In this document: one piece after another, positions 6,513-62,274 of the stretch
How positions within the stretch are numbered: the first letter of the stretch is position 1
Layout of the letters: each line of letters opens with the position of its first letter
Source: a virus
Reading direction: 5' to 3' (one strand)
IMG/VR virus record: IMGVR_UViG_3300045988_097776
Length of the DNA stretch: 64,000 nucleotides
Position numbers and translations under genes: made by a program
The notes under the pieces: model-generated
The model's input: the letters and a program-made list of their open reading frames with translations, nothing else
The model's database searches: none
Told to the model about the DNA's origin: nothing

Positions 6513-6592
6513 GTCCGCTCAAGTAGGAAGCGAATAGCCTTATTCTTTAATCCCTGAAACATTTCTTATTTCTCCTTCTACCGGGCGGGGCA

Positions 6593-7720: not shown

Positions 7721-7756
7721 TTATATAAAAAATTCTCCCATTTAGGGAGGATTTTT

Positions 7757-7993
7757 TTAAAACTCTAAAATTGGTGTTTCATCAGGCAGAGCATCTACGC
7801 TGGTGATGGAGATAGATTTATTGTAATCAGTGGAAATTCCTGTCACTCTCTCAATTTCTTTAGTGGCAATATCATACATAATATCGTTTGCAACTGAAGC
7901 CGGGCCTTTTCTATGAATATCGGCCAGCTGTTGGAAGATAGGATGATCGACCTCTAACTCACGCTGGATAGAAATTGAAATTTTAACTCTCAT
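7757..7993 (-). CDS. hypothetical protein, 78 aa
   Basis: ORF track. Confidence 0.4.
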   Translation of the reverse strand: MRVKISISIQRELEVDHPIFQQLADIHRKGPASVANDIMYDIATKEIERVTGISTDYNKSISITSVDALPDETPILEF

Positions 7994-8025
7994 ATAACTT
8001 TTCTTTCTATTGGGAACGCCTTAAA

Positions 8026-8174
8026 TGGCGTTCCCGATTTTGAAGCACTTGGCCGAAGGCGACCAAAGAGAACCGGCCTTGCGCTTGGCATCAGAACGGG
8101 CACGGTCAACATCCTTACCGACACCCACGAACACATGGCCCGCCGCAGTCTTAAAGTAGAAATTCATCATAGTA
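8026..8174 (-). CDS. hypothetical small GC-rich protein, about 49 aa
   Basis: Manual translation: MMNFYFKTAAGHVFVGVGKDVDRARSDAKRKAGSLWSPSAKCFKIGNAI. Confidence 0.35.
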
Positions 8175-8303
8175 AAGCTTCCTTTCTTTTATGAGGGTTA
8201 TCCCCTCTTGATGATTAAATTATACCACAATGCGGTGAGATTGTCAAGAACTTTTTTACGTATTTTCCAGATATGGGGCGGGGATTTCACCCGCCCCTTT
8301 TAT

Positions 8304-8768
8304 TTAGTCCAGATTGTTGATATATTCAATAATGTTTGTAGTTTGGGGGTCTACGGTATCCCCTAAATGCCAGCCGTTTCTAATTTTGCCGTTATCATCA
8401 AAGAGGATAAACGGCGGTTCATAGAAACTACGGAATACACATTTAGCTTTAGTTGTTCCATACGCCACACAATGGCATTTATGGGCCGGAAATTTATGCC
8501 TTGCAAGCCATTCCTTTTTGGCGGCTGTGACTGCTTTCTTATATTCAGGGGGGCTTTCAGGGGGCAACCATGTAATAACTCGAACCTCCCACCCGTTACT
8601 AATTGCGTTTAGAAGCGCATTTCGGAGGGCGTTCATATCCCACATGGGGGCGGCGTCTCGGAATGGGCTGGGGTCTCCATCGCGGAGTTTTTCAAGCCAG
8701 TTGGGGACTGCGTATAGATCTGCAATTGTCCCGTCCATATCAAAGCAGAGCATTTTTTTAGTTATCAT
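8304..8768 (-). CDS. HAD-superfamily phosphatase (5-prime nucleotidase / deoxyribonucleotidase-like)
   Basis: N-terminal CFDMDGTIAD (the DxDGT motif). Length 154 aa. Consensus promoter at 8791-8819. Confidence 0.55.
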   Translation of the reverse strand: MITKKMLCFDMDGTIADLYAVPNWLEKLRDGDPSPFRDAAPMWDMNALRNALLNAISNGWEVRVITWLPPESPPEYKKAVTAAKKEWLARHKFPAHKCHCVAYGTTKAKCVFRSFYEPPFILFDDNGKIRNGWHLGDTVDPQTTNIIEYINNLD

Positions 8769-8796
8769 ATATATAACCTCCTTTTGTTTTATTATA

Positions 8797-9021
8797 CTAC
8801 CTGTTGCCTATCTTGTCAACAAGTTTTTCAAAGAAATTTTTATGCCGATATACCTTATAAGGCATTGACGTATAATCCACATAAATTAGAGGGTCGCGCA
8901 AAAGAATAGCTTGCATATAGATCCCATAATTCTCTGGGGTGGTAGTACCACCAAATTGGCGGCGGTAGATTTCAGCCACAGTTAAACACTCATTAGGCCG
9001 AATAAACTTTGAAGGTTTCAT
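8797..9021 (-). CDS. hypothetical protein, 74 aa
   Basis: ORF track. Promoter TTGCAA-17-TATTAT at about 9041-9075, a duplicate of the 7600 cassette. Confidence 0.4.
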   Translation of the reverse strand: MKPSKFIRPNECLTVAEIYRRQFGGTTTPENYGIYMQAILLRDPLIYVDYTSMPYKVYRHKNFFEKLVDKIGNR

Positions 9022-9204
9022 TTAGTGTCCCTCCTTCTTTCTGTACTAATAATACCATAATTTAAGGATAATTGCAAGATGACATTTTGCACAAGATTTC
9101 AAGTCAAAAATTGTGCAGAACTTACAAACAAGAAAACTCGGCGCGCTGTGAGCGTCAGCGCGCCGTCGAAATTTTGGTATAAAAAAAGAGGGCCGAAGCC
9201 CTCT

Positions 9205-9684
9205 TTAATTTTCTGCAAATTGAGCTAGAAATTGCGCAGAAAGTCGAACCATATCATGCGCTGATTCTTTATCGTTTTTATAGCAAATAAAGCCGATTAC
9301 CTCACCTTCTGCAATAATAGGAGTAACAAACAACGATTTTCCCTTCCATTCAGTACCCCAATTACGAATATTGAACCATTCATCCGGGGTCTTTGACATT
9401 CCGAAGGGGCGAGGGCCGCACAAAAGACTTGAATTATCAAAAACCGATGCTAAAATGCCGTTAATGCTTAAAACTTTTTGAATATGTGCGGCCTGAGGAG
9501 CAAAAGAAGATAGTAGGGAATATTTCTTGAAAACCACCCCGCCATCTTCAATAAAGATTTCTAGCGGGTCGCCTTCCCGAATATTCATATTCCGACGAAT
9601 TTCCTTAGGAATTACTACCCGGCCGAGATCATCAATGCGCCGCACAATGCCAGTTACTTTCATTTTTTTTATTAGAGAGGGCAA
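9205..9684 (-). CDS. SpoVT/AbrB-family transcriptional regulator (swapped-hairpin N-domain plus GAF-like C-domain)
   Basis: N-terminus MKVTGIVRRIDDLGRVVIPKEIRRNMNIREGDPLEI is the AbrB/MazE/SpoVT signature. Length 159 aa. Terminator at 9170-9205. Confidence 0.7.
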   Translation of the reverse strand: MPSLIKKMKVTGIVRRIDDLGRVVIPKEIRRNMNIREGDPLEIFIEDGGVVFKKYSLLSSFAPQAAHIQKVLSINGILASVFDNSSLLCGPRPFGMSKTPDEWFNIRNWGTEWKGKSLFVTPIIAEGEVIGFICYKNDKESAHDMVRLSAQFLAQFAEN

Positions 9685-9714
9685 GGCTATTGCTTGCCCT
9701 CTCTACCTCCTTCC

Positions 9715-10110
9715 TTAAAACTCCTTGCGCAGTTCCTCAAGCATGGCTGTTAAGGTGTTCATATCTCCACCCATTTCCAATTTGACGCACATGAGCCGGG
9801 TCTGCTCGTTAATCCATGTGTTAATCTCTGCGATTTCATCATCCATTTTTTCCTTGGCCGGAGTATAAATGCCGCAAGTGCAGGTCTGGATGACATTCTC
9901 GCAATATCTGGAAGTCTTATAGCCCTTAGCCTGCATTTCCGCCTGGATAGTATCGCCCAGCTCATTGGCCGACTTGACGATAGCCTCCTTAAAAGCCTCC
10001 AGCGCGTCGAACTCTGGCTGATACCTCTCCCGGATAGCCGCCTCCTTACAGGCAGAAATCTTGCGAACCTCGTCACGAACATATTCTTCAATTCTCTTAG
10101 TAACACGCAT
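9715..10110 (-). CDS. hypothetical protein, 131 aa
   Basis: ORF track. Consensus promoter TTGACA-17-TATACT at 10176-10204 and terminator at 9680-9715. Confidence 0.45.
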   Translation of the reverse strand: MRVTKRIEEYVRDEVRKISACKEAAIRERYQPEFDALEAFKEAIVKSANELGDTIQAEMQAKGYKTSRYCENVIQTCTCGIYTPAKEKMDDEIAEINTWINEQTRLMCVKLEMGGDMNTLTAMLEELRKEF

Positions 10111-10344
10111 TTCTAAAAACTCCCTTTCTGTTTTAATTTGAGAGGTTTTACTCGTTTCCCCTCTTTACATTTAATAGTATAGCAGATTTCGGGAGAAGTG
10201 TCAATCGTCAAAATGCACAACATTTGCAAACATATTTTGTTGAAACTGCTAATCATAGAAAATTCGGATCGCGCCAACCCTGCGCGATCCGCCCAATATT
10301 ATGCAAATAAAAAAGAAGCTCCCGGAAAACCGGGAGCATTTCTT

Positions 10345-10584
10345 TTACATCATAGGGAAATCAATGCCAATTTCGTTAGCTCTGCGGTCAGCCTCTTCGT
10401 CGAAGACCGCCTTCAAAATAGTGGCCGCGTCATCGGGAGTACAGGTATCTTCACGCAGGAACTTCCCCAAAGACTGAACCAAAGCGGAGTCGGCCGAACT
10501 CCGGTCTATCAAACGCATTGCTGTATGAAGAGCAATCAGACTGTCCCTATCTTCCTCGGTCATCTTGGGCATCTTGATAGTCAT
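10345..10584 (-). CDS. hypothetical protein, 79 aa
   Basis: ORF track. Promoter TTGACA-17-TATAAT at 10635-10663. Terminator GCTCCCGG-AAAA-CCGGGAGC at 10318-10345. Confidence 0.45.
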   Translation of the reverse strand: MTIKMPKMTEEDRDSLIALHTAMRLIDRSSADSALVQSLGKFLREDTCTPDDAATILKAVFDEEADRRANEIGIDFPMM

Positions 10585-10838
10585 AACATACTTCCTTTCT
10601 GGTTTTATAGAGTTTTCCTTCTCTTGATGGTATTATTATATCATAAAGGGTTGGATTTGTCAACCCTTTATATCGGAGTATTTATAATATATCCAAACAT
10701 TATAATTTCGGCGGCGAAAAGTATAGCAAGCAGGAAATGGTTTTTTATTATAGCGGTCACATACTGGATAGTCAGGCAAATGGCAAGAACAATTATGATA
10801 AAAGTGGTCATGCTAGTTCCTCCTGCGGTAGAGAGGGA

Positions 10839-11078
10839 TTATACCCTCTCTACCTCGATAATTTCCATGTCGAAATTTTCCCAGCAGGCCCCAAGGAGCA
10901 TATCATGCCGCAGGTCGTTTTCGCTTTCGTAGTCCATATCTTCCAGAATGTCCTGCCAGTTATCGGGATTATATTGCTTTTTCAGCCAGTCCCAACCGGC
11001 GCCACGAGCCAGCCGCAGGTCATCAGATACACAGATAATATTCTCACGATTATCAGCCATAACCACATAGCTTTTCAT
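10839..11078 (-). CDS. hypothetical acidic protein, 79 aa
   Basis: ORF track. Promoter TTGACT-17-TATACT near 11121-11160. Confidence 0.4.
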   Translation of the reverse strand: MKSYVVMADNRENIICVSDDLRLARGAGWDWLKKQYNPDNWQDILEDMDYESENDLRHDMLLGACWENFDMEIIEVERV

Positions 11079-11324
11079 TTTCTTTTACTCCCTTTCTTGA
11101 GGGCTTTTGTTCTCCCCTCTTGATGGTTTAAGTATATCAGAATGAGAGAGAAAAGTCAAGCGATTTTGGGAAATTTCTTTCCGTCAATTTCACCAATAAA
11201 TCGAGCCAAAATTTGTGCAAATTACCTCTTGACAAAAAATTCCGGCCGCTGCGCTCATGCGCGGCCGGCTGAACAATATATTTTGAATTGGAAAAGAAAT
11301 TCCTCCCATTTTGGGAGGAAAATC

Positions 11325-11462
11325 TCAATCTACATATTCTCGATTTAAAACTTTTACAACCTCTTCAGGTTTACGTCGAGACCGGAAAAGAGCATCTTCA
11401 TAGGAATAACCAGAGATATTGTCGGTCGAGCCATTTTCAAGCAAAATCTCAAATTCATACAT
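11325..11462 (-). CDS. hypothetical small protein, about 45 aa (internal start of the listed ORF)
   Basis: A promoter -10 and TSS fall inside the listed ORF. AAGGAAG RBS before the internal ATG (MYEFEILLENG...). Confidence 0.3.
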   Translation of the reverse strand: MYEFEILLENGSTDNISGYSYEDALFRSRRKPEEVVKVLNREYVD

Positions 11463-11518
11463 ATCTCTCAACTTCCTTTCTTTTGATAACTTAATTTTAA
11501 CATAAGAATTTCGGGAAG

Positions 11519-11755
11519 TCAATCGGTACTTTCAACAATTTTCATTCCATTTGCTTGTATAATTCGCATAGCTTCTTCAAGAGAAGTATTGTCAACGGAG
11601 CCACAGTCGATACAAATATATTTTCTGCCATCCTTTACCATAGTAGTGAAATAATATTCTTGACCAGAAACAAGGCCCATCTACTCTCGTAGTCTTACGG
11701 GAATCATGATGCGCCCACTTGAATCCAATTTCCTTGAGAAAGTAGTTTCTTGCAT
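11519..11755 (-). CDS. AbrB/MazE-family DNA-binding protein, 78 aa, with 1 in-frame TAG
   Basis: Manual translation: MQETTFSRKLDSSGRIMIPVRLRE[Q]MGLVSGQEYYFTTMVKDGRKYICIDCGSVDNTSLEEAMRIIQANGMKIVESTD. The GRIMIP motif is the swapped-hairpin signature. Confidence 0.55.
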
Positions 11756-11843
11756 TTTGCTAAATAAATTCTAGTGACCTAGGTTCGTGCGAAAAACGAC
11801 TCCATCACGGGAATCGCCGATTTGTAACAATCGGAGGGAATAA

Positions 11844-11960
11844 TTACCACTCGCAAGGCATTTTCTGGCAGAACTGAGCCATAGGACAATTCTTACAAGA
11901 ATCCTAGTTCAAACAGAACTCCAGAATGACCGCAAGAGCTTTCAGCACTTCTAAGGTCAT
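11844..11960 (-). CDS. small Cys-rich protein, 38 aa, 1 in-frame TAG
   Basis: AAGGAG RBS. Product MTLEVLKALAVILEFCLN[Q]DSCKNCPMAQFCQKMPCEW. Confidence 0.35.
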
Positions 11961-12135
11961 TAGAAAACTCCTTTCTTTATTTTTCTATATATATTATAAA
12001 ATATTTTTTTAAAAAAAGCAAGGACTGACTTATGCCAGCTCCAGCCTCTGTAACCAGATAAGGTGATATTTCCCCAGTCTTGCCAAAACTGTTCCGTATC
12101 CCTTATTAGTCCAAACAGTGGAACCAATAGGATAT

Positions 12136-12387
12136 TCACGCGGAAGTCTCTCGATAGTCATTGATAATCCCCTTTTCTGTAAAGAATCCGACAAGATGTT
12201 CTGCTGCACTGGACTTATGCGGAGTTATCAACAACCACGCACCGCGAAGATTATCAATAGTCGATAAAGACCAGTCCGCGCCCATCTGACTAATTAAGCA
12301 CTCGAAACTTGCTCGATCCTCAAGAGAGTTAAACGAAACTACATATTTTCCCATGCGGAAATCGACCTCCATAGAATTTTTTATCAT
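12136..12387 (-). CDS. hypothetical protein, 83 aa; a coupled 43-aa ORF follows at 12004-12135
   Basis: ORF track. ATGA start/stop overlap at 12133-12138 suggests translational coupling with the downstream small ORF MTIERLPREYPIGSTVWTNKGYGTVLARLGKYHLIWLQRLELA. Confidence 0.4.
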   Translation of the reverse strand: MIKNSMEVDFRMGKYVVSFNSLEDRASFECLISQMGADWSLSTIDNLRGAWLLITPHKSSAAEHLVGFFTEKGIINDYRETSA

Positions 12388-12426
12388 GGGGAGTGGAAGT
12401 CATAGACCTCCACTCCCGCAGGTTTC

Positions 12427-12666
12427 TTATGCGTTAATGTAGATATTAACGCCACCTTCTTCTCTCATTTCAATCTCAGTCACCTGCTTCTTGAACAGGG
12501 CGCTGAGGTCATCGCCATAAAAGTCACCGCCGAGCTGGAGCTTCCATTCCTTGTCAAACCGGAAATGTGCGCCGGTATTGCTGTCGATTACCTGAATAGC
12601 CGCATCCTCTTCCAGACAGAAAGAGTATTGCCGGAACAAAATCACAACGTCTTTGAAGCACACCAT
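12427..12666 (-). CDS. hypothetical protein, 79 aa
   Basis: ORF track. Promoter TTGACA-17-TATATT at about 12705-12745. Confidence 0.4.
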   Translation of the reverse strand: MVCFKDVVILFRQYSFCLEEDAAIQVIDSNTGAHFRFDKEWKLQLGGDFYGDDLSALFKKQVTEIEMREEGGVNIYINA

Positions 12667-12922
12667 TTCTTTTACTTCCTTTCAAATTCTTTTTGTGGTC
12701 TGTCTCTCTGGACAAGTATAATATACCATACCCACAAAGGAATGTCAAGCGATTTCGGGAGAAAAATTCTCGGCAGATTGCACAAACTTTTGGCCATATA
12801 ATTGTTGAAACTGCCGAACAAACAAAAATTCGGGCCGCGGCGCACGCTGGCGGCCCGGCGAAAAGTCAATATGGGAAAGTGCACAAAAATATCCGGCAAT
12901 CTTTGTGTAGATTACCGGATAG

Positions 12923-13066
12923 AATATTAAAACATCACAGTAAAGAAGTTATACTCACTATGCTGTGGATTTGGATAGCTGTTATCTGCTACTATGTCAG
13001 CCCAGCTCAAAGCAATCCAGAGAAGGAGAGCGGCGCAAAGGCCGCCTCCTATATACCGTAGCACTC
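12923..13066 (-). CDS. small membrane protein, about 47 aa
   Basis: Manual translation: MRVLRYIGGGLCAALLLWIALSWADIVADNSYPNPQHSEYNFFTVMF. Start overlaps the stop of the upstream gene. Confidence 0.3.
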
Positions 13067-13453
13067 TCATACCGCAGGCTCCTTCCCCAGAAGGTCATAC
13101 CGTCCAGGGATTTCGGCATTAAGCCTATCCCATTCTTTGGCAGTTACCCTGTCATACTCATTATAATAGTTATCCCGAATGATATAAAGCTGTTCTGTGG
13201 TGTCCTTATCCAGAGCGGCCTTATACTCGTCAAGAGAGGCAGGACGAGTGTGAAGCTTGCTGTTGATATACCGTGCATTGATAAAGGCCCAATGTGGCAT
13301 GACGGCCTTAGAGATAGCATTAAAAGCGTCTAAGTCAAGGATGATACCATCATCCACAGCGGCCGCCTTCACATTCATGGAGTAACGGAGAACACGCACG
13401 AACTCAGGCTTATTAAAGGTGGGATTGGTGTAATACTTGATGAAGTTAGACAT
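13067..13453 (-). CDS. hypothetical protein, 128 aa
   Basis: ORF track; AAGGAT RBS. Confidence 0.45.
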   Translation of the reverse strand: MSNFIKYYTNPTFNKPEFVRVLRYSMNVKAAAVDDGIILDLDAFNAISKAVMPHWAFINARYINSKLHTRPASLDEYKAALDKDTTEQLYIIRDNYYNEYDRVTAKEWDRLNAEIPGRYDLLGKEPAV

Positions 13454-13508
13454 ATCTTTTATCCTTTCTCCCCGTATAGCCGTTAGGTCAGCTTCTTGTG
13501 GTATATGG

Positions 13509-13772
13509 TTACTTGATAGCTTCGCCGGTAGACAGGTCTACAATCCAATAGTCAGGATTGACAAGCTCATGGTCTACTCTCCATCTTGCGTGTGCAAAAG
13601 TAGACGGCTCATAGTATCGCATTTTGTCACCCACTAAAACCTGCAACTGATACCTCATAATACCGCCTTCTTTCTTTTGATTATTATAACCCTGCCTTGC
13701 CTTGGGTTTTGCAAGGCAGGGTTTATAAACTACTGCTGATTGAGTTCTTTTTGCTGGTCTTTCGTTGCCCAA
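13509..13772 (-). CDS. hypothetical protein, 87 aa
   Basis: ORF track. Confidence 0.35.
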   Translation of the reverse strand: MGNERPAKRTQSAVVYKPCLAKPKARQGYNNQKKEGGIMRYQLQVLVGDKMRYYEPSTFAHARWRVDHELVNPDYWIVDLSTGEAIK

Positions 13773-14170
13773 TCAAGAGAGGTTCTGACCGTCGGACGCT
13801 TGCGGTATTGCTCCGCCTCTGCCTTTGTGCCGCCTTTAGCTAAAGCGTAGGCTTTCCAGTCTATCGCTCCTTTAGCGGTAGTCTCTTTATAGACCACCGC
13901 ATGAGCGGCGCCCTTTATCTGGACTGTGCCGTACAGATAAGAGGTCTTATCCGTGGTCTTGAACTCTTTCCTCAAACGGGTGAAAAGCTCTTTCGCTTTG
14001 GCCTTGGCCGCTTTCTCTGCAACCTCTGCCGCCGCTACTGCTTGCTTAGCGGCTAGGTACTCCATGATGACCTTCCTATCATCATTGGCAAAATCAATCT
14101 TTTTCATACTCTTTTGACTCCCTTTCTTTTTGTGGTGTGATTCTCTTTTGTTCTGTCTGTATTGTATCAA
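13730..14170 (-). CDS. hypothetical protein, 146 aa (coiled-coil N-terminus; possibly a Gam-like nuclease inhibitor)
   Basis: ORF track. Consensus promoter TTGACA-17-TACAAT at about 14150-14200; a second TTGACA-17-TAAACT at about 14270-14300. Terminator at 13690-13730. Confidence 0.4.
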   Translation of the reverse strand: MIQYRQNKRESHHKKKGSQKSMKKIDFANDDRKVIMEYLAAKQAVAAAEVAEKAAKAKAKELFTRLRKEFKTTDKTSYLYGTVQIKGAAHAVVYKETTAKGAIDWKAYALAKGGTKAEAEQYRKRPTVRTSLDWATKDQQKELNQQ

Positions 14171-14592
14171 GTCTTTTAAGACTTGTCAATACTTTTTTTG
14201 AAAATTTTTAATTTTCAAGGTACATTGAGTTTTGCCCTGTCCTCTACTGGACAAGTCCAGTTTACACCCGTTTGCCCTGTTTGTCAATAGTTTTTTGAAA
14301 TTTCTTTCTCTCTCTTTTGCACAAAATAAACATTGTTCAACTGTGCAATTTGCATAAATCCTTTACGCGCGCGTATTCCTTTAGGGCGTGGCTTTTTACT
14401 TTCATACTTTAATGAGTGAAAGAGGCTGACTACACTTCAGCACTTTACCATGTGAAAGGGGAGGGTGTATTTTGGGAAAAACTGGAAATTTTTTCGCAAA
14501 TTTGTTCTGCCACGCCATTTCAAAATCTAAATCGTACTTTCAATCTCAATAACGAAAAAAAGATGAAAGGCTAAACTTTTAACCTTTCATCT

Positions 14593-14715
14593 TTTCTCCA
14601 CAACTAGGGCAAAAATTATATTCTCCTGCTTCATCATAGGTAACTAATAAATCGCCATCTTCCTTATAACACGAATGAGTGAATCCGCAATTTAAACACA
14701 AAGAATATAAGGCTC
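14593..14715 (-). CDS. small zinc-ribbon protein, about 40 aa (start uncertain)
   Basis: Product ...CLNCGFTHSCYKEDGDLLVTYDEAGEYNFCPSCGEKMKG contains CxxC...CxxC. A strong terminator hairpin follows on the minus strand at 14560-14600. Confidence 0.3.
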
Positions 14716-14759
14716 CATTCCCCTTAAATTTTATAATAAGCCATTTTCCATTCTATCCC

Positions 14760-15197
14760 TTAATGGTATAATTGATATTTTCTGCCAATCTTATCAATCT
14801 CCTCAGCTTCCATTGGCCTAAATCCAATACAAGTGAGAGTCCCTTCAGGACTCTCTTTTTCCAGCTCTGTCCTGCAAGCATCGTAAATCAAAAAGTAATC
14901 TTTATACTCCTCCATACCGAGCTCTTTAGCTGCTTCGACCGCCCGCAATAAATCATTCTTATTTTTCGCTCGACAAACAACTTTAGTTTCTGCTTCTATT
15001 ATCCAATTATGGTATAAATCTGTATCGAGACTTACATTCACATGATACATAATACCATCTCTTTCCCTAACTACTTCTTTGCTTCCCCAAAGTATTTTCT
15101 CTAAAAGAAAAGCAATAGAAGCATGGGAAACTTGTGCGGCCAGCTTACCTGGAGACATATTTAAATCTTTTCTAGCTATAATTAACTGTTTATACAT
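14760..15197 (-). CDS. peptidyl-tRNA hydrolase, PTH2 family
   Basis: IIARKDLNMSPGKLAAQVSHASIAF matches the PTH2 R-x-D-L-x-M-x-x-G-K-x-A-A-Q-x-x-H-A core. The C-terminal half aligns with the human PTRH2 fold (…KVV..A.....L......A...G…). Confidence 0.8.
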   Translation of the reverse strand: MYKQLIIARKDLNMSPGKLAAQVSHASIAFLLEKILWGSKEVVRERDGIMYHVNVSLDTDLYHNWIIEAETKVVCRAKNKNDLLRAVEAAKELGMEEYKDYFLIYDACRTELEKESPEGTLTCIGFRPMEAEEIDKIGRKYQLYH

Positions 15198-15946
15198 TCT
15201 TTACCTGCTTTCAAAAATGCCCTAAAATTCTGGGAGTTGCGGTCAGGAATTGCAAAATAAATATTTGGAATATTATAATTGCGGGCTGCGCCTATGAGCA
15301 AGGTTGCGACCGTATACGGATCTTGCATAAAAACTCCACAACCCCAGGCTCCCGCGATTAGATTTTCCACACCGTTTTCCTCAGCAATCTGATACATAAA
15401 GTGAATTCGATCTTCAAGAACTCTATCATTCTCGCTCTTACTCACACTCTGGTATCTATGCGCCGTTCGGAAATTCGGGGCCGCACAAGTTATAATATCT
15501 GCTTCCTTTTGTTTGTCATTGCGCTCGAATACTACGCTAGGAGAATACAGCGCTCTATTTAAATATAAAGCCTTATTTAATCTCTGTCGATTCCATGCGT
15601 AATACGTTTCATCAAAAGCAAGAAGGATAGGGTAAAGATTGGATTCATGACAAAGAGCCTCTTCCTGCGCGGGACTACCTCCTAGAAAAAATCCACCCGG
15701 GTTTTTATAACTGGCGTAGTTAAGAATTGCTGTTCTACCATTGTTAGATAAATTGAATAGGCAAGATACACTATCCATATCTGTTAGAGTAAAAGCTGGT
15801 TTCTGATTGCCGGATTCATGCTGTGTAAAAGAATCTGGACTATATACATATGTGCGCTCGATAGATAATTTAGTGTTTGCGGCAAGTCTAGTTTTAATAT
15901 CTTCATAATGCGCTCGTGCCTTGATTGCGCGCTCTTGTTTTGTCAT
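15182..15946 (-). CDS. macrodomain-fold poly(ADP-ribose) glycohydrolase-like protein (bacterial PARG/DUF2263 family)
   Basis: NPGGFFLGGSPAQEEALC matches the bacterial PARG signature G-G-x(6-8)-Q-E-E. Length 254 aa. AAAGGAGG RBS. Overlaps the PTH2 start, so the two probably form an operon. Confidence 0.55.
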   Translation of the reverse strand: MTKQERAIKARAHYEDIKTRLAANTKLSIERTYVYSPDSFTQHESGNQKPAFTLTDMDSVSCLFNLSNNGRTAILNYASYKNPGGFFLGGSPAQEEALCHESNLYPILLAFDETYYAWNRQRLNKALYLNRALYSPSVVFERNDKQKEADIITCAAPNFRTAHRYQSVSKSENDRVLEDRIHFMYQIAEENGVENLIAGAWGCGVFMQDPYTVATLLIGAARNYNIPNIYFAIPDRNSQNFRAFLKAGKECINS

Positions 15947-16145
15947 CGCGGCCTCCTTTTATAAAAATGCCGTTGGGCAAAATTAAATAATTGTCTTATT
16001 TTATTTTTCAAATAAAGTGTGTTGAGTTTTTAATTCCTCGATCTTCTACTTTAACTCTTTGTTTTCTTTTATTACTTTTGCATATTCGCATGAATCATCG
16101 CATCTAATTGGATCATACTATTGATGCAATCTAAGATAACAATAA

Positions 16146-16505
16146 TCAATGCATGGGTTCATATTTACACCCCTTTATTCTACAATCTAGTAAACACTGT
16201 CCTGTAGCTCCATCACAGGGAATTGCATCAGGGTAATCCTCAAAATAAGACGAAGCTAATAGGACTTCATACCCGAGTTCTCGCAATATTCTTTCTGCGA
16301 TATATCTATTCCTCAGCTTTACCCATTCTTCTCTATTTATTTTTGTTTCTCTGTATATTTCTCTGGATTTCTCCATATCTACTGTTATGCTGCCATCAAT
16401 ATTAGTCTTAAATGTTGAATCCTGTGTACGATAAAATTCTCGAAAAGGATTTTCAATATGAAGAACCTCTCTAGCATAATTATCAAAATCTTCTGAGAAT
16501 TTCAT
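16146..16505 (-). CDS. hypothetical protein, about 119 aa
   Basis: ORF track; the likely start ATG at 16503-16505 overlaps the FolD stop (TAATG). Confidence 0.4.
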   Translation of the reverse strand: MKFSEDFDNYAREVLHIENPFREFYRTQDSTFKTNIDGSITVDMEKSREIYRETKINREEWVKLRNRYIAERILRELGYEVLLASSYFEDYPDAIPCDGATGQCLLDCRIKGCKYEPMH

Positions 16506-17296
16506 TATCTTCGCGCCTGTTTCGCTAACTATAAGCAATTTTTCATCAACCCCAATCTAGTCAATAATCCCACCCCTCCGGGCACAGGAGTTGACCACAC
16601 TTCATTTCTCTTTGCAATATTTTCAAGTTCAACAAAATCGCCTTGAATAAAATTCGCCTAATTTCTACGAATACCAACATCAACAACAATAGCGTGAGGG
16701 CAAGCCTCTCTTGTCAAAGTAAAATCTCCAACTGCGGATACTACTAAATCTGCTATTCTTGCTAAATAAAGCTTCGCATTTACATTTGTTTTACTGTGAC
16801 AGATAGATACAGTCATATTTCTCGCCAACAACTCTTTCGCCATTGGCTTACCAACTATATTACTTCTACCTAATATTAAAGCACTTTTACCTTCATACTT
16901 AAAACCACAGTCATCAAGATAGTCTACTATTCCTCTTACCGTTGCCGGTAAAACAAGAGTAGAAGAAGTTAAACCGTCGCAGTCTTTTATCGTAGGAATT
17001 ACATCAATAGAAAAAGAACTCAATGAATCTCTTAGTGGCATTTGTGCTATAATACAATCAGTATCTATACTATTTATGTAATTATTTAAATCTGCGGGAG
17101 TCCAGTGTTCTGGAACTTTAATCACGCTTACTGGCCATCCTAATTCATTAAAGTCGTCTACTTTTTTCTATATATAAATCTAATTTCCGGCATCCCCGTT
17201 AGTTGCATCAATTATGGTCAATGATGGCTTGACATCGGACTGCCGCAATTCATCTTTCTATTGTTTAAAATATTCTTTTATGTTAATCTATTGCAT
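16505..17296 (-). CDS. folD: bifunctional methylenetetrahydrofolate dehydrogenase/cyclohydrolase FolD, 263 aa, 3 in-frame TAG
   Basis: The listed 155-aa ORF ends at a TAG. Reading through gives ...GRSNIVGKPMAKELL...VVDVGI...PVPGGVGLLT, the FolD C-domain. Upstream through two more TAGs gives the N-domain MQQINIKEYFKQQKDELRQSDVKPSLTIIDATNGDAGNQIYIQKK. Confidence 0.8.
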
Positions 17297-17621
17297 CTGG
17301 TTCTAGCCCCCATGGATCATCAGTATCATAATCAATCATATCATAGAATGATATTTTGTTATTAGGCGTTATTTCTAAAACCTAATGTGGGATACAACAT
17401 ATTTCATAATCAGAATCTCTATCTAAATTATATGAAGCATAAATATGCAAAGCCGTTGGTCTTGCATTATTGATATTTTGAACATCCCATAAGTCAACAG
17501 TGTTTTTATGTCCAAGTATGTCTGTTAGAACTTCTGGCTATACTGCTATGCTTATAATTAAAATGTTAAAGTAATACTATGCTCGTTTTGGTAATTCAGA
17601 ATAGGGCGTATCGAAAAACAT
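17283..17621 (-). CDS. hypothetical protein, 112 aa, 3 in-frame TAG; first gene of the leftward early transcript
   Basis: GGAGG RBS 10 nt before the ATG (cat at 17619-17621 on plus). Reading through TAG gives one ORF ending at TAA 17283-17285 and overlapping the folD start. Confidence 0.45.
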
Positions 17622-17736: not shown

Positions 17737-18450
17737 ATGAAGAAAACACATTGTATTTATATGCATAAAAACAAGATTAATGGGAAAATTTATGTTGGTC
17801 AAACATTTTAGGATAATCCTAATGCTAGATGGCAAAACGGGCATGGATATATAAAACAGCCAAAGTTTTTTTCAGATATTATAAAATACGGATGGATAAA
17901 TTTTGAACATATTATTTTAGAAGAAAACTTAACGCAATAGGAGGCGAATGAAAGAGAAAATTTTTGGATTCAATATTTTGATAGTTGTAAAAATGGGTAT
18001 AATACAATTTCAAAGAATAATAGATCAGAGGTATAGAAAAAAACAACAAATAGCCTTATTGTATGCTTAAATACAAATAAATCATATAAAACATTAAAAG
18101 AAGCGTCTTTGGATACCGGAGTTGATCCATCTGCAATTTCAAGATGTTATGGAGGATAGCGTAAAAGTGCAGGAATAATAAATGGTGTTCCTGGGTTTTG
18201 GATTTTAACAACATCGGATAAAAGCCTTATTAATAAAATAAAAAATAATTATAATGATGCTATAAGAAAGATAGTTTGTGTTGAGACTTCTAGAATTTTT
18301 AATTCTTTAGATGAGGTAATAGAATATTGTGGATTGCCAGTATCTTCTTCAAATAGAGCAAGATTAAAAAGTATTTTAAAATATAAGACAAATTCTTCTT
18401 TTGGGCGAGATAAAGAGTTAAATATAAAATTACATTGGAGTTATCTATAA
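17737..18450 (+). mobile_element. GIY-YIG homing endonuclease with two NUMOD-like HTH modules, 237 aa, 4 in-frame TAG
   Basis: N-terminus MKKTHCIYMHKNKINGKIYVGQTF[Q]DNPNARWQNGHGY (GIY...YIG...R...H...E). C-terminal repeats ...LKEASLDTGVDPSAISRCYGG[Q]RKSAGIINGVPGFWI... AGGAG RBS. Confidence 0.7.
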
Positions 18451-18521
18451 TTTGTAATAAGATTTGACAATCTAGTTTTTTTTTGTTATTATATGAGTAT
18501 AAAAAGGAGATGAACCAGTAT

Positions 18522-19568
18522 ATGATAAAATTAGACTATACGATTGAATCTCCCGAAGAGCGCAAGGCGCTTGTCGAAAAAATAATCGCAGAAAATCCTG
18601 ATTTAACTCCAGGTTATTTAGAAGTATTAGCAGATTATTTAGTTCTATGTATGGAGAAACAAGAGAAGAAAGAGAAGAACATATTGACTGATAACCGAAT
18701 GGCCACTGTCAATAAACGAGAATGTTCTTTTGAGGGACTCGCTTCATAGATGGAAAATGGCGAGGATGGCATTTATGGTTTAATGTCAGACAATAAAAAT
18801 GTTATATTTTAGCCAAAGATTTCTATTACACAAAAAGATTTAGATTCTATACCATGTTTAAAATAGTTGAGAGAAACCATTAATGCTTGGGAAGGTGCCT
18901 TGAAACGCGCCGCGGGAACGAAACAAGCTTATATGATGAAAAAAGCATTGATAGAAATGCGAAAAGATTAGTATATTATTAAATAGGCATATCAAAAGCC
19001 TATAGTTCCTTGTAAGCTAACAAGAAATACAAGAACACATATACCTCTTGATGATGAAAGTTATCTTAATGGATAGGAAGTAGTCGTTAAAGGTATTTCC
19101 TTAATGGATCCAAATGTAGTTTCTGCTATTTTATGCAATTATTCAAAATTAAAAGAAGATAGTTATGATTAGTTCGATGGGGATACGTGGTATCTAATTC
19201 AAGCGTTTGAAGAGATATGCGATAAAGCTCTTGAGGATTTTCCAATCTATTTACGAATTGTTGAGTTAAAGATTGATAAAAAGCAGAATAATGAGATATA
19301 GGAAATATTAAATGAAGAGTTCGGAAAAACATATAGCGTGGAATATATCTCCAGTTTATGGAGAAATAAAATTCCTAAATTGATAGCCGAAGCCGCCCTA
19401 GAGGATTTTTTATATTGGTAGTATAAAAACAGAAATTATCCAATGAAAAAATGTTCTAAGTGTGGGCAATTAAAGCCAGCTCATAATCAATTCTTTTCAA
19501 AAAATAAGACAAGTAAAGATAATTTATATAGTATTTGTAAGAAGTGTCGTAACAAGAAAAGAGGTTGA
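18522..19568 (+). CDS. putative late-gene transcription regulator (sigma-region-4-like HTH plus C-terminal zinc ribbon), about 348 aa, many TAG
   Basis: ...NEI[Q]EILNEEFGKTYSVEYISSLWRNKIPKLIAEAA resembles a sigma-70 region 4 HTH. C-terminus CSKCG...CKKCRNKKRG. The family assignment is tentative. Confidence 0.3.
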
Positions 19569-57319: not shown

Positions 57320-57959
57320 AGTTTAATTCAATAGCTTTTAATTTATCTATTGAATCAGCTTCGAATATCTAAGTTTTATATTCTTGCATTAAATGATATT
57401 TGGGATATACCACATTTGAAATAGCTAAACTTAGAGCGGATAATTGCTCTAAACTCCATGGCACACATTCTTCGTGTCGAGCGTGCCACTCAAGCGTAGG
57501 ATTTTCTACTTCAGCCGCGAGAGCGACTTGATATTGATTGAGATTTAAGCTAATCTCAGACTGGTCCTCCTACGTAATTCCATATTCTTTTCCATCAACC
57601 CAAGTTAGTGGGTGGGTAGCAAGATACTCTGCGAATAGTTTCTTGTTTTCCTCTTGTTTGTCATACTTTGCCTAATCTAAATCAGAAGTGAATGTTCCAT
57701 CTTCTTGATTATATATTGAATAATTAGGAGTAACATCTGATGGAATTGTTTCTATCTCTAATACTTTTACAGCATTAGATTGATTTAATACATCGGCTTT
57801 AATTAGAGTATAATGTGTATCTCCATTTGAGCCGATAACCCCAGTTCCCTCTTCTTCCTCGCAGGCAACGACAATACCATTTGAGGATTGCAGTTTAATG
57901 TAACGTGCTTCTGAAAGAATATCAACTACTACATTCTCTCTATTTAATAGAATATACAT
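57297..57959 (-). CDS. DUF4376-like protein (tail-fiber assembly/chaperone-like), about 220 aa, 4 in-frame TAG
   Basis: The listed 95-aa ORF continues through TAGs (…ATHPLTWVDGKEYGIT[Q]ED[Q]SEISLNLN[Q]Y…). Family assignment is from memory and tentative. Confidence 0.3.
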
Positions 57960-58135
57960 TACTTTATTTCAACTCCTTTAAATAATGAACGAAAATAATT
58001 GTCCATATCTTGAATTATATAAAAACAAGTTCCTTTAGAAATATGTGCCCTCCAACCTTGATAGGATTTCTAAATTTCATCTGTTGAAATTTTACCCTCT
58101 AACCATAGCGCTTGCATTTTCTTTAACTTTCTGCG

Positions 58136-59176
58136 CTAATGAGCCACTTTCTTTTTAAAAGGAATTTGTATTATATGATTAGTGTCTGTGAGATAAAAGT
58201 TCCACTTTAAGTATTTTAATGGAGCGTGACGTTTGCCGTCCGCATGAATAGGAGAGATTCTAGTAATAGTAGTCTTTTTCTTATTCATCTTTAATCCTTG
58301 CTTATTTAAGCGAACTTCTATTCTCTTTTCACATTCGGCTAAGTATTGACTGTCATTGTGGAATAAATATAAATCATCCATATAACGACCATAATACTTA
58401 ATATGTAACTCTTCTTTGATGAAGTGGTCAATTTCGTTCAATGCTAGCAATGCGAATAATTGTGATGTTTGACTTCCTAATCCAAGACTTTTATTATCAT
58501 ATTCATAGTATTTGCGGCCAGGCTTAAAATTAGTGGTACTAATTCTCGTGTATTTGTGCCGTTTACTAATATAATAATCTTTTCCTGGTATGGGAGAGGA
58601 ATCTTTTGTTAGCTTAAAAGAAAATGTATCTATTAAATAACAGCATAGTTGATAAATTCTTTTATCTTTTATCAAACGTTTAGCCGCTTTCTTTAAAGAT
58701 TTATGGTCAATAGAATCAAAATATTTTTGAATATCAATTCTTAACCCATAAAAATCTTTTCCTAATCCATATTCTCTATGAGCTTGTTGAAGATGTTTCT
58801 TTACTCTTTTTAAAGCAAAGTCTATTCCTTTTCCTCTTAAAGTAGCACAATTATCGTAGATAAATCTAGGAGTTAATTCTGGTAATAAAACTTGTTCACA
58901 TAACGCATTTTGTACCAGTCTGTCGTTGATATGACACGCTCTTATATCTCTTGGTTTGCCTCGTTCGATTATCGAAAAACAACTAAACACAAGCTATTCG
59001 TATTCACACGCTCGCAGATCAGCTTCTGTTTTTAAAATTGTTTCTATCCTATTCTCTTCAAAATTAATTGTACTATCTTTCCATCGAACGTTTCGGCATA
59101 CCTTATAAGACGCATCATACATAGTGTCAAAACTACAAAAACGCTCGAAAGTAGTATCTTGATTTATTTCAGACAT
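58136..59176 (-). CDS. diversity-generating retroelement (DGR) reverse transcriptase, 346 aa, 1 in-frame TAG
   Basis: The two listed ORFs (59176-58994 and 58990-58136) are one frame joined by TAG 58994-58996. RT motifs FDSIDH and YMDD (GRYMDDLYLF). The DGR-specific motif LGLGSQTSQ (I/LGxxxSQ) replaces the group-II-intron QGxxxSP. AAGGAG RBS 6 nt before the ATG. Confidence 0.85.
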
Positions 59177-59485
59177 ACTTTCTCCTTATCATGTAGCTAT
59201 AGTAGTAGCTACTCGAGCTCCACGTCTACAGTCTTACTTTATCCACTTTTTCAGTGAAATGGTTAAGTTCTCCTTAGATGAAAAGGCAGATCTACCTATA
59301 GTATATTATTCGATAGTTGTAGAGCAAAGCTCTTTAATGGTCTCTCAATCTCTTCCCCACATAGTGAGTGCAATCCAGAGTAAACCTTAATTAGATGGAT
59401 AATAATATACTCCGGGGTACTATTTAGGCGTTGCTCGTTTGCGCTGCTCCGCAGCTTAACTCGCAACATGATAGCTCCATCTAAT
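59177..59485 (-). ncRNA. DGR spacer region between TR and the RT (expected to be transcribed with TR as the TR-Sp template/primer RNA)
   Basis: About 310-nt non-coding interval between TR and the RT start. Its role is inferred from DGR architecture, not from the sequence. Confidence 0.4.
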
Positions 59486-59615: not shown

Positions 59616-60110
59616 TTATCGACCTCTCCTATGGGTTTTAGGAGCCGAATATCTATGCTCGACTATAAGTTTATCTCTATTTTTTCTATCTTGGATTGAT
59701 TCTTTTACTTTCTTAGTCAATCTAGCTAGATGTTCAAAAGATCTTCTTTTCTTTTTGCTGTTCTGAGCATACTAATAAATACATAGGTCGATTTGTCGAA
59801 ATATACTATCACAATATTCAATCGCTCTATTGTGATATTCATTTCTTTTTGTAAGGGTTTCTTTATCTTTTAAGTTTATCCTACACGCCTCATAACAGCA
59901 AGCGTGTATACCCTTTCCGCATTTAATTATATCGTACCCGAACGCTTGAAGAGGTTGACCCTCTCCAAGCAGTCCAGGTTTGCAGATTTGTTTTCCATCC
60001 TTATCAAATTCTCTAGGACGAGTTAAGACTAAAATGTAGCCAACCAATTCACGGGCTTTATAAAGACAGTCTTGTTTTGATAGGTGTCTATCCTTTACTT
60101 TTACAGACAT
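59616..60110 (-). CDS. avd: accessory variability determinant (Avd)-like protein, about 164 aa, 1 in-frame TAG
   Basis: Small basic protein in the canonical Avd position between VR and TR. GAGGGA RBS. The sequence does not look obviously like the classic four-helix-bundle family, so the call is positional. Confidence 0.45.
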
Positions 60111-60191: not shown

Positions 60192-61949
60192 TTATCCAAT
60201 GACGAAAGCCGGCGCGAGCCCGTAGCTGGTGCCGTAGGGGTTGGAGTTCGCAGATCCACCGGTGTCGACAAAGCAAACGTGGTTCGAGTGGCTGTAGTAA
60301 CGGGACCGTTCCCAATACCACATCGTTGAATTCGTCAACGAACCATTGGCGTTCATCTGGTATTTAACTCTAGTAGAGTTGCTTGTATAGTAACTATAGG
60401 CCGTCTAACTTCCTCCAACAGTCCACTCCTAATAAGAACTAGCATAGCCGCTAGAGCTAGTAAATCCCATCTCACATTCAGAAGGTAGCCAACATTTTGC
60501 AGTTGTTTGAACATCCGCAGTATTATTCTAATTACCATTACTAGCAGAACTTGTCTTCTTAGTAACAGATTTAATAGAAGCGGTTGCGCTACATCTATTA
60601 CCAAAATCATTGCACAAGGATTGAGCGGTTGAACCATTCCATAACGCGTTACTACCAAATGATGTACTGTTAGGTAAAGTTCCCGCAGTCTGGAAAGTTA
60701 ATGTTCCAGTTCCATCCTAATCAGCACCAATACAAATCATTGTAGCAGCATTTCCCCCGAGGACCGCAGAAGAAAGACTTACGAGTTTCTTCTTGCCTAC
60801 ACAATTTTTTCGCTCTCCAGATGACGCTTTAGCAGCCCATGTTTTTAATCCAGCCCACCATTTAGCATCACCAACAGTAGTTTCAGAACCCCACTCCCAA
60901 TAGCTAGCTGTTACAGTAACAGTCTTATTTCCTGGGGCTATATAGTTGGTTCCCTCTGCGACTTTAATAGTAATAGTAGTAGAAGAAATAGCCGTACTGC
61001 CATCACCTTTAATTGTAAGAACATTTCCACTTAAAGACAAAGTTAAACCAGAAACGCTAGTTGGACTATAACTAATAGCTCCATCTCCAGAACGAGTAAT
61101 GGTAACCTTTACACCGGCACTATAGTTATCTCCATCAAGAGCTACAGAAGTCGGATTTACTGTTAAACTTCCAGCAGCTTTATTAATAGTCCAATTTACA
61201 TCAAGATTTGATGTAGTTCCATCGGCCCATCTATAATTACTATTTAGTGTGAAAGTAGCAGTATAGGTTCCAGCGTTAGTCGCGGAAGTTGTCCCGCCAA
61301 TCGTCATATAAGTGGTATTAAAGTTATTCCAATAGGAAGCACCACTTACTGATTGGCTACTACCAGTATAGGTAAGATTATTCTTCCATGTTGGTTTCGG
61401 CACCGATTTTCTTTCAACAGTAACATTGAAAGAAGCAGACTGAGTTACTCCATTTTCTGTGTAAGAAACAGTAATTTTCTAGGTGCCAACCGCAGTTAAT
61501 GACGTTGGAGAGCAACTATACCCGGTAACCGCGGATGATGTACTATCAGAATAACTTGCTGTAACTACCATTCCTGTTGTTTGGAGAGTGTCTCCATATT
61601 CATAAGTTGTCTTAGTTGGGTTAGTAGTAACCTAAATACTAAGAAGTTTATGAATAACAGTAATGTCTTGAGTGGTCTAACAAGTTTCTCCTAATTCAGA
61701 GTAAGTAATTGTTACTTTAGTAACCCCATCAGTTAAAGGGTTTGGAGTAACTTGATACCCAGTTACTTCTGCTGTTGTTACAATAACGCCGTCCATGCCG
61801 TAAGATGCGGTGACTACCATTCCCGCGGGATTAAAAGTATCACCAGCAAGATAGCTCGTTTTAGTAGGGGGAGTGGTTACTTCAATTTTTACAAGAGAAA
61901 GAGAACCTCCACCTTTTCCACCCTATTCAGCTAAAATACATTTAGGCAA
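60192..61949 (-). CDS. DGR target protein: N-terminal tandem bacterial Ig-like domains plus C-terminal C-type-lectin/FGE-fold variable domain, about 585 aa, about 8 in-frame TAG
   Basis: TTG start with AGGAGGT RBS at 61949. Listed ORF 60717-61403 is in frame and joins through TAGs to …AKCWLPSECEMGFTSSSGYASSY[Q]EWTVGGS[Q]TAYSYYTSNSTRVKY[Q]MNANGSLTNSTMWYWERSRYYSHSNHVCFVDTGGSANSNPYGTSYGLAPAFVIG, then TAA 60192. VR covers the last 35 codons. Confidence 0.8.
60209..60308 (-). repeat. DGR variable repeat (VR), 100 bp, at the 3-prime end of the target gene
   Basis: 17 of 35 TR adenine positions are substituted (to C, G or T) and there are 0 of 65 differences at non-adenine positions. GC-rich IMH-like 3-prime end GGGCTCGCGCCGG. 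Confidence 0.9.
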
Positions 61950-62274
61950 ATTATTTACCTCCTTCTATCTAGCTATTGTTTCAAACAAATCTAAACTACT
62001 AGATAGAAGGTCGAGGATGGAAGCGATCTTCGCTCCAGTCTTTTAGAAAGCCATAAACAATTTCCGAGAAAAAGTACACTTTTTAACAGGAAAAATACTT
62101 TTTCTTCCTAGATAACAAAAAATTGGGAAAAGGGTAAGAAACCCTTTTCCCAAAAGTGAGTATCTTACTCTTTTCAAATATACTTGAAAAAGAGTATAGA
62201 TTGATTATATATGTTTGACCAAGTTCAGTAAAGTGTACTTTTTCAAAAGTTTTAGATGAAAGGAGAATTATGCT

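Follow-up and report, generated by a model that had tools for sequence, protein, structure and literature searches.

Poly(ADP-ribose) glycohydrolases (PARGs) are classically enzymes of poly(ADP-ribose) (PAR) hydrolysis, and those of the bacterial type leave the protein-proximal ADP-ribose in place, hence they are poor erasers of mono-ADP-ribosylation. For the PTH2 family of peptidyl-tRNA hydrolases, the only chemistry known to us is hydrolysis of the ester in peptidyl- or N-acyl-aminoacyl-tRNA. The bacterial-type PARGs SCO0909 and DRB0099 represent the sole hydrolase class, among those tested, that reverses the 2'-OH ADP-ribosylation of RNA by the toxin RhsP2, in which the bond formed is, in chemical terms, the one that links ribose to ribose in PAR (Lu et al. 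2025, PMC11833690). Enzymes of this type were shown to hydrolyse PAR, to strip ADP-ribose from the 5'-phosphate ends of RNA and DNA and to shield E. coli against RhsP2, and the operon partners of the D. radiodurans enzyme (DrPARG) are an RNA/DNA ligase and an HD-Pnk protein (PMC11833690). In phages, PTH2 has been read as the ribosome-rescue component of RNA repair, and Macro and NADAR domains have been proposed to degrade signals derived from ADP-ribose (ADPr), Macro being placed also in RNA repair that depends on nicotinamide adenine dinucleotide (NAD) (Iyer et al. 2021, PMC7824862). Here we describe a 64,000-nucleotide stretch of viral DNA (IMG/VR record IMGVR_UViG_3300045988_097776; the whole stretch is called the window below), in which a gene for a predicted PARG (15182..15946) and a gene for a predicted PTH2 (14760..15197) overlap on the minus strand. 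The two appear best explained as a co-transcribed, translationally coupled accessory cassette, which may serve to protect translation by acting on RNA and tRNA.

The first gene of the pair codes for 254 amino acids, contains no in-frame TAG and ends in TAA. Its product is predicted to be a microbial-type PARG, i.e., a macrodomain ADP-ribose glycohydrolase of the TIGR02452/DUF2263 type, with intact catalytic motifs. It matches Pfam PF10021 (PARG_cat_microb) with an E-value of 8e-27 (94.8 bits; cutoff 23.5) and NCBIfam TIGR02452 over residues 10-244 with an E-value of 1.4e-53 (182.1 bits; cutoff 50); its PDB sequence matches are the PARGs of D. radiodurans (5zdg, E 8e-24) and T. curvata (3sig, E 4e-21). 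The signature GG-x8-QEE reads G84-G85-F-F-L-G-G-S-P-A-Q94-E95-E96, and residues P83, G84, G85, G90, Q94, E95 and E96 are invariant in an alignment of 15 diverse homologues (alignment A1), as are G199, G202 and G204-V-F206 of the diphosphate loop G199-A-W-G-C-G-V-F206. Where the textbook "GGG" has its third Gly, this protein has F86, in a column that holds G, Y, F or M among close homologues. The AlphaFold (AF2) model has a mean predicted local distance difference test score (pLDDT) of 92.8, and its top Foldseek matches in the PDB are the T. curvata enzyme (TcPARG) and DrPARG, at a template-modelling (TM) score of ~0.8, with eukaryotic PARGs and ordinary macrodomains scoring far lower. Because hidden Markov models (HMMs), PDB sequence matches and AlphaFold/Foldseek concur, the family call is firm, and every sequence and fold match places the protein in the PARG-type class, not in the ALC1/TARG1-like one. 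The protein thus resembles the bacterial-type PARGs (3SIG, DRB0099 in 5ZDB-5ZDG, SCO0909 and CdPARG) in fold, QEE glutamates, GAWGCGVF loop and size (~250-280 aa), and differs from them in its 27-30% identity to the solved structures, in the Gly-to-Phe exchange, in being phage-encoded and in overlapping a PTH2 gene. Four homologues of ~395 aa (P0079, P0082, P0088 and P0104) carry a C-terminal fusion to a YAcAr (PF10686) SLOG domain, a combination that would connect this branch of PARGs with the binding of ligands derived from nucleotides.

The second gene codes for 145 amino acids, again with no in-frame TAG and with a TAA stop. Its product matches Pfam PF01981 over the complete model (positions 1-115 of 115; E 1.9e-23, 83.3 bits, cutoff 23) and PHROG 1866, and its PDB sequence matches include the archaeal Pth2 structures 1rlk, 1wn2 and 1xty and human Bit1/PTRH2 (1q7s). 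Residues K18 (of the G-K motif), D106 and T110 (of the D-x-x-x-T motif) are invariant in the PTH2 alignment (A3) and are matched by DxGxT in the archaeal structures; following the S. solfataricus Pth2 study, we take them to be catalytic. The AlphaFold model has a pLDDT of 85.5, and the top 14 Foldseek matches in the PDB are all Pth2/Bit1 proteins, with target TM scores of 0.73-0.79. As for PARG, the agreement of HMMs, PDB sequence matches and AlphaFold/Foldseek makes the family call firm. The protein scores below the cutoffs of the archaeal NCBIfam equivalogs (83.6 vs 126 for NF003314; 68.7 vs 82 for TIGR00283) and has an extra beta-hairpin inserted after helix 1 (~residues 39-53), for which reasons it is assigned to a divergent, phage-type subfamily, predicted to retain its catalytic residues, and not to the archaeal equivalog. 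The insertion is variable, at ~25 aa here and up to ~80 aa in relatives. Fold, Lys18, the D-x-x-x-T motif and the full PF01981 match are shared with the archaeal and eukaryotic enzymes (1XTY of S. solfataricus, 3ERJ of A. fulgidus, 1Q7S of human PTRH2/Bit1), from which the phage protein is set apart by the equivalog scores and the variable insertion; fold, Lys18 and motif are likewise those of the PTH2 proteins of large phages (XacN1, phiCD211 and mycobacteriophages; PHROG 1866).

The ATG of PTH2 lies 16 nt inside the 3' end of the PARG gene (overlap at 15182..15197), the junction reading ...GAATGTATAAACAGTTAA (also given as ...AAAGAATGTATAAACAGTTAA), and an identical 16-nt overlap occurs in two related viral loci, L002 and L021 (other viral loci are referred to below by such L numbers). 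The arrangement suggests translational coupling of the two genes. A strong Shine-Dalgarno sequence, AAAGGAGG, is read upstream of the PARG ATG (15952..15959, minus strand), and a hairpin resembling an intrinsic terminator (AAGATGAAAGG, a 12-nt loop and CCTTTCATCTT, followed by a T-run; 14554..14593, minus strand) closes the transcription unit ~170 nt downstream of PTH2. The automatic terminator scan was limited to loops of up to 8 nt and therefore missed it; L002 and L006 possess a hairpin and T-run at the matching position, with a different stem sequence. It is the overlap, the strong Shine-Dalgarno and the shared terminator that argue for a single unit. The original prediction, which was made from the letters and their open reading frames (ORFs), had called a PTH2 alignable with human PTRH2, a macrodomain PARG with GG-x8-QEE, an operon in which the start of the former overlaps the end of the latter, and a TAG-recoded phage. 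The ORF list returned both minus-strand ORFs at the predicted coordinates, and all four of these calls were borne out: no match placed 15182-15946 in a non-macrodomain family, and the evidence for recoding is given below.

Conservation of the pair was assessed in two surveys, one of viral PARGs (80 best loci, grouped into 18 clusters at 75% identity) and one of viral PTH2 proteins (36 clusters). The order FolD - small ORF - PARG - PTH2 is kept in L002-L007 and L020, where PARG is 65-77% identical to that of the window, and in L021 and L022 (52-54%); the reversed order FolD - PTH2 - x - PARG is found in L026 and L080. Outside this family, the standard-code phage L059 shows the order RlaP - DHH - x - PARG - x - DUF4406 - x - PTH2 - x - SIR2, and the two genes are 3.4 kb apart in a 105-kb phage (L024/L025). 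With L106 left out, six PARG clusters have a PTH2 within 10 kb, and in four of these it lies within 1.5 kb (hand-calculated binomial P ~0.006, with p = 0.15); the statistic is weak support for linkage, three of the four close clusters being one phage family. In L106, an apparent PTH2 beside PARG was rejected as spurious, since the match was to an over-called N-terminus of P0176 that is really conserved upstream DNA. PTH2 was near PARG in none of 80 bacterial PARG loci, and no adjacent PTH2 was found for the distant phage PARG homologues of Lak megaphages, Bacillus phage G and huge-phage metagenome-assembled genomes (MAGs). The linkage of PARG and PTH2 is therefore real, recurrent (in at least two unrelated phages) and phage-specific.

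The source of the window is a large, TAG-to-Gln recoded gut phage of roughly 100-160 kb. When TAG is read through, the ORFs of 150 aa or more in the window triple in summed length, from ~7,100 to 20,600 codons, and a plus-strand late block at 17.7-56.8 kb is uncovered. The assignment of TAG to Gln rests on an AbrB-like gene (11519..11755), in which a TAG of the window pairs with a CAG or CAA Gln codon in L002, and conversely. A 163.6-kb IMG/VR contig shares 94-97% protein identity with the window across the region, and the window represents 64 kb of a ~164-kb genome. TAG makes up 301 of 588 Gln-type codons in the late genes (51%), compared with 1 of 63 in the minus-strand block at 5.3-16.5 kb (17 genes scanned, PARG and PTH2 included) and none of 13 in PARG and PTH2 themselves (P ~9e-5 at the late-gene rate). 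Directly upstream on the same strand, FolD carries 7 in-frame TAGs among 14 Gln-type codons and ORF112 (17283..17621) 3 among 4, together 10 of 18. A sharp boundary in code usage is thus present inside a single leftward string of genes, between a TAG-rich part (16505-17621) and a TAG-poor part (5303-16505); in the latter CAG is favoured over CAA, and the G+C content is higher (0.38-0.47 for the block, against ~0.33, and 0.38-0.56 for the genes scanned). A simple picture in which early genes use the standard code was rejected, as the TAG-poor AbrB-like gene has one in-frame TAG, and the TAG-rich FolD and ORF112 adjoin the pair on the same strand.

The avoidance of TAG by PARG and PTH2 would permit their translation under the host code, and their expression independently of suppression is plausible. 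Avoidance of TAG and the host-type signals likewise make early expression of the operon plausible. The original prediction had spoken of an "early operon"; the operon stands, and early timing is what we infer, with ORF112 and FolD upstream carrying 3 and 7 TAGs and the nearest strong sigma70-like promoter candidate on that strand lying upstream of both.

Genes within ~2.6 kb of each homologue were enumerated by Pfam in a descriptive census. Around phage PTH2 genes they include Thg1 (4), Metallophos, i.e., calcineurin-like phosphoesterase (4), HAD_SAK_2, or Swiss-army-knife HAD (2), RlaP (2), RtcB (1), ATP-dependent ligase (2), SLOG YpsA (2), SLOG YAcAr (2) and DUF488-N3a (2). Around phage PARG genes are found a CCA-adding enzyme, Thg1, RlaP, an AAA_33/KTI12-type kinase, DUF2828 with DUF7788 (twice), SIR2, an isochorismatase and DUF488-N3a, and around Firmicutes PARG genes Tpt1/KptA (2 of 18) and NADAR. 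On a short viral contig, a PTH2 of 60% identity is flanked by proteins that read as metallophosphoesterase-like and as ligase-like with a KxDG motif; in support of both calls, the census, which took in those ORFs, counted Metallophos and ATP-dependent ligase. The neighbours as a whole point to RNA repair and NAD-centred systems. In this respect the pair may be compared with the RNA-repair toolkits of phages, such as Pnkp-Rnl1 of T4 or the RtcB, Rnl, RlaP, CCA-adding enzyme, Thg1, KptA/Macro and PTH2 of jumbo phages, in which PTH2 and macrodomains are already listed (Iyer et al. 2021). Its homologues elsewhere adjoin Thg1, RlaP, RtcB, HAD_SAK_2 or a CCA-adding enzyme, as in those toolkits; the difference is that the macrodomain here is PARG-type, a class of which Iyer et al. 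2021 make no mention, and that among the window's scanned genes neither a ligase nor a kinase nor a nucleotidyltransferase turned up as a partner.

We propose, tentatively and with a rough probability of 0.45, that the pair forms an RNA- and tRNA-directed cassette for the protection of translation, in rescue or in counter-defence. PARG would remove ADP-ribose linked O-glycosidically to ribose or to a terminal phosphate, and its likely substrate would be RNA, especially tRNA and other structured RNAs ADP-ribosylated on a 2'-OH or a 5'-phosphate by host toxins of the ADP-ribosyltransferase (ART) type, by defence effectors or through Tpt1/KptA-type chemistry. PTH2 would hydrolyse the peptidyl-tRNA or N-blocked aminoacyl-tRNA that piles up at ribosomes stalled on damaged or missing tRNA, and thereby return tRNA to the pool. 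Both enzymes would be translated under the standard code of the host, before TAG suppression or independently of it, and they probably act in parallel on translation shut-down and not as an obligate two-step pathway. The RNA-directed reading arises from combining the PARG activities of Lu et al. 2025 with the known chemistry of PTH2. It draws support from the intact active sites, the anatomy of the operon, the conservation of the pair, the RNA-repair neighbours, the literature and the avoidance of TAG; what we infer is which substrates are used, when the genes are expressed and that they serve counter-defence.

Several observations weigh against this proposal. The linkage is infrequent in either direction: PTH2 occurs within ~1.5 kb in 4 of 18 viral PARG clusters, and PARG within the same distance in ~2-3 of 36 viral PTH2 clusters. 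Each gene also occurs singly, as FolD - PTH2 with no PARG in L023 and as ORF119 - PARG - FolD with no PTH2 in L106, so the partners are not obligate, and their adjacency may merely reflect a shared insertion hot-spot. Pfam scans of the left-block and right-end genes of the window gave no ART, ligase, kinase or Thg1, and altogether no RNA ligase, kinase, RlaP, CCA-adding enzyme, Thg1, Tpt1, ART or PARP was found in its scanned parts; the context of RNA repair is thus taken over from other phages, through a census made without a formal background model. PADLOC returned no match for PARG, PTH2 or their neighbours, and we know of no tRNA-ADP-ribosylating defence system in the presumed hosts. That FolD, in the same string of genes, is rich in TAG complicates the reading as an early operon. 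In the neighbourhood comparison that had been suggested with the original prediction, the pair was kept in relatives and each gene was found alone as well. Of the "counter-defence pair" then proposed, a role in counter-defence or host maintenance stays plausible, given the variable accessory slot described below, and an obligate partnership does not hold (L023, L106).

That slot extends from FolD to a conserved gene beginning "MKKIDF", and its contents differ among relatives: PTH2 alone, PARG-PTH2 or PTH2-x-PARG, with or without SIR2, YpsA, DUF488 and DUF1653. The cargo that follows PTH2 is SIR2 in L020 (6521-7114) and L059 (12477-13220), and DUF1653, DUF488-N3a and a YpsA SLOG protein in L022 (6390-7986); homologues of these SIR2, YpsA, DUF488 and DUF1653 genes were found nowhere in the 64-kb window. 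The intergenic DNA bordering the slot (~400 nt) is ~90-95% identical among relatives, though their PARGs are 65% identical, and this conservation fits a recombination-anchored hot-spot.

The contents of the slot raise the possibility of an island against NAD signalling, in which PARG would break down immune signals derived from NAD, or metabolites of ADP-ribose, and PTH2 would be an unrelated neighbour; the candidate targets are Thoeris-type cyclic ADPR isomers with a ribose-ribose link, O-acetyl-ADP-ribose and ADPr-1''-phosphate. Such an island would account for the genes directly downstream of PTH2 in L020 and L022, for the recurrence of SLOG and SIR2 near phage PTH2 and PARG elsewhere and for the PARG-YAcAr fusions, and it agrees with the proposal of Iyer et al. 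2021 that Macro and NADAR degrade ADPr-derived signals. Nevertheless, the window yielded no SIR2, SLOG or DUF488, a literature search found no cleavage of glyco-cyclic ADP-ribose (gcADPR) by any PARG, and the tight translational coupling to PTH2 is left unexplained; we consider this possibility improbable. We give a similarly low standing to the turnover of poly- or oligo-ADP-ribose or of protein marks whose writer would be a PARP, Sir2 or ART of the phage or its host, as a writer/eraser toggle for host takeover with PTH2 as a general translation booster. It would employ the classical activity of PARG, but the established enzymology, by which bacterial-type PARGs spare the protein-proximal ADP-ribose, speaks against it. 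In its favour, both L020 and L059 have SIR2 close to the pair, ARTs and PARPs have been described in phages (PMC7824862), and a precedent is provided by CdPARG, a clostridial DUF2263 protein that removes the PAR made by a clostridial PARP (PMC5966428). The neighbours elsewhere are, however, mostly RNA-repair genes and not ARTs, and no ART, PARP or SIR2 was found in the window, which covers 64 kb of ~164 kb.

Two further alternatives were already contained in the original prediction. PTH2 might serve the recoding itself, by recycling peptidyl-tRNA dropped at in-frame TAG codons while suppressor tRNA and release factor 1 (RF1) compete, in which case PARG would be incidental. The heavy use of TAG for Gln in the late genes, the TAG-free PTH2 gene and the position of PTH2 as the more constant slot gene in the recoded family (L023, L118-L127) agree with this, but a recoding signature is present in only ~5 of 36 viral PTH2 clusters (~31 are without one), phages that keep the standard code commonly carry PTH2 (among them those of Enterococcus, C. 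difficile, Mycobacterium and Xanthomonas), and a search of the literature found no link between stop-codon recoding and Pth. As the main reason for carrying PTH2, recoding is accordingly not favoured, and we hold it to be quite improbable. The leading suggestion had been that PTH2 detoxifies the acetyl-aminoacyl-tRNA made by TacT/AtaT toxins of the Gcn5-related N-acetyltransferase (GNAT) type and that the macrodomain reverses the ADP-ribosylation of DNA by DarT. Its first half is chemically reasonable for PTH2, since Pth2 enzymes have been assayed on N-acylated aminoacyl-tRNA. Bacterial Pth reverses TacT acetylation (PMC9241777), and GNAT genes lie near 3 of 18 Firmicutes PARG loci, a weak point because GNATs are very common; the gene context, in which nothing related to TacT or DarT was seen, lends no support. 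The analogy to DarT/DarG fares worse, in that the thymidine-ADP-ribose made by DarT is reversed by DarG/TARG1-type macrodomains, and human PARG, MacroD1 and ARH3 are reported inactive on it (review PMC9967889). Our protein belongs to the same macrodomain superfamily as the DarG/TARG1 type and follows the same general logic, erasure of a toxic ADP-ribose mark; it differs in its PARG-type class and has no DarT-like partner gene. The combined TacT/DarT role is very improbable in our estimate, and translation protection directed at RNA and tRNA is the reading that we prefer.

Other features of the gene string are as follows. Directly upstream of PARG, with a gap of 200 nt, lies a gene for a conserved 119-aa protein without assigned function (16146..16505, minus strand), which has no Pfam, PHROG or PADLOC match and has homologues at the matching position in L002, L006, L023 and L106. 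It is preceded by the gene for a FolD-like methylene-tetrahydrofolate dehydrogenase/cyclohydrolase (16505..17329, minus strand; PF02882 and PHROG 7320, E 1e-43 with TAG read as Gln), which adjoins pair genes in L020, L022, L023 and L026 and forms the conserved left border of the slot. The best minus-strand promoter candidate, at 17685-17657, is a sigma70-like TTGACC-17-TATAAT with an extended TG, which matches 11 of 12 positions in a consensus scan, as a pattern match only; it sits ahead of ORF112 and FolD, and the 200-nt gap before PARG holds only a weak promoter match. Downstream of PTH2, the final ORF ahead of the terminator is a possible Cys-rich, zinc-ribbon-like mini-ORF of 40 aa with a TTG start (14579..14701, minus strand; the Pfam zinc-ribbon hints are weak and below cutoff). 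It is mostly deleted in the 97%-identical relative L001, and is thus variable and dispensable. Between the terminator and the next gene, ~400 nt (14160-14560) are ~90-95% identical to relatives whose PARG is merely 65% identical; this segment holds two near-consensus sigma70-type promoters for that next gene (14287-14259 and 14189-14161), has no Rfam match, and may be a regulatory region, a non-coding RNA or the recombination anchor of the cargo slot.

The rightward block is opened by a gene for a GIY-YIG domain protein (17737-18450, plus strand) with four in-frame TAGs, which diverges from a promoter region common to it and the leftward string ORF112-FolD-PARG-PTH2. The products of the late block include a sigma-factor-like protein with a C-terminal HNH/zinc-ribbon region (18468..19568), a terminase, a portal protein and a putative major capsid protein, which falls in a PHROG family of unknown function and is named from its position. 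Two giant late ORFs appear when TAG is read through, of 2904 aa (34863-43577, plus strand) and 1323 aa (43578-47549, plus strand). In the TAG-poor block, two AbrB/SpoVT-type proteins are encoded on the minus strand and kept in relatives; the one at 9205-9663 matches PHROG "antitoxin" families, the one at 11519-11755 is recognised solely by its N-terminal sequence, and they may be transcription regulators of the phage or antitoxin-like proteins. On the minus strand at 57959-62042 is what looks like a diversity-generating retroelement. It is composed of a reverse transcriptase with a YMDD motif (57959..59185; PF00078), a 164-aa ORF without family match at the expected position of the accessory protein Avd (59616..60110), a template repeat (59483-59585) and a variable repeat (60206-60308) at the C-terminus of a target protein with Big_3 and DUF6273 domains (60192..62042). 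The two repeats are 83% identical over 103 nt, and 23 of the 38 differences counted over the repeat and its 15-nt flanks fall at adenines of the template.

MAGs of Acetatifactor, Lachnospiraceae, Eubacterium and Oscillospiraceae supply the closest cellular homologues of PARG, with identities no higher than 45%; these homologues and the AAAGGAGG Shine-Dalgarno make a host of the Clostridia type likely. A megablast search of 13-18 kb of the window against GenBank records of cultured phages gave no match, and a tRNA scan and an Rfam search of the whole window detected no suppressor tRNA and no known RNA family.

Each of the two proteins is an ordinary member of a known family, and it is their pairing that is modestly new. 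PTH2 is already annotated and discussed as a recognised gene of large phages, and PARG-type macrodomains are present in public phage genomes (Lak phages, gp114 of phage G), where they are essentially undiscussed. A literature search that combined PTH2, PARG and phage returned nothing; no description of an overlapping PARG-PTH2 pair was found in the papers searched, nor of a phage PARG as an anti-defence gene. The boundary between TAG-free and TAG-rich genes upstream of the pair offers a concrete site for testing how recoded phages time their gene expression. In a more specific form of the proposal, which we regard as unlikely, the pair would counter a form of immunity in gut Clostridia, as yet undescribed, in which tRNA or other RNAs of translation are ADP-ribosylated at 2'-OH groups or ends. 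PARG would then be the first viral eraser of RNA ADP-ribosylation, with the coupled PTH2 clearing peptidyl-tRNA from stalled ribosomes and both enzymes being made before the switch from TAG to Gln. Should the proposed role of the pair in protecting translation be right, the viral PARG would bring the recently discovered erasure of ADP-ribose from RNA 2'-OH groups, known as a means of bacterial self-protection, into phage counter-defence, and would point to RNA-directed ADP-ribosyltransferases as an anti-phage mechanism of gut Firmicutes.

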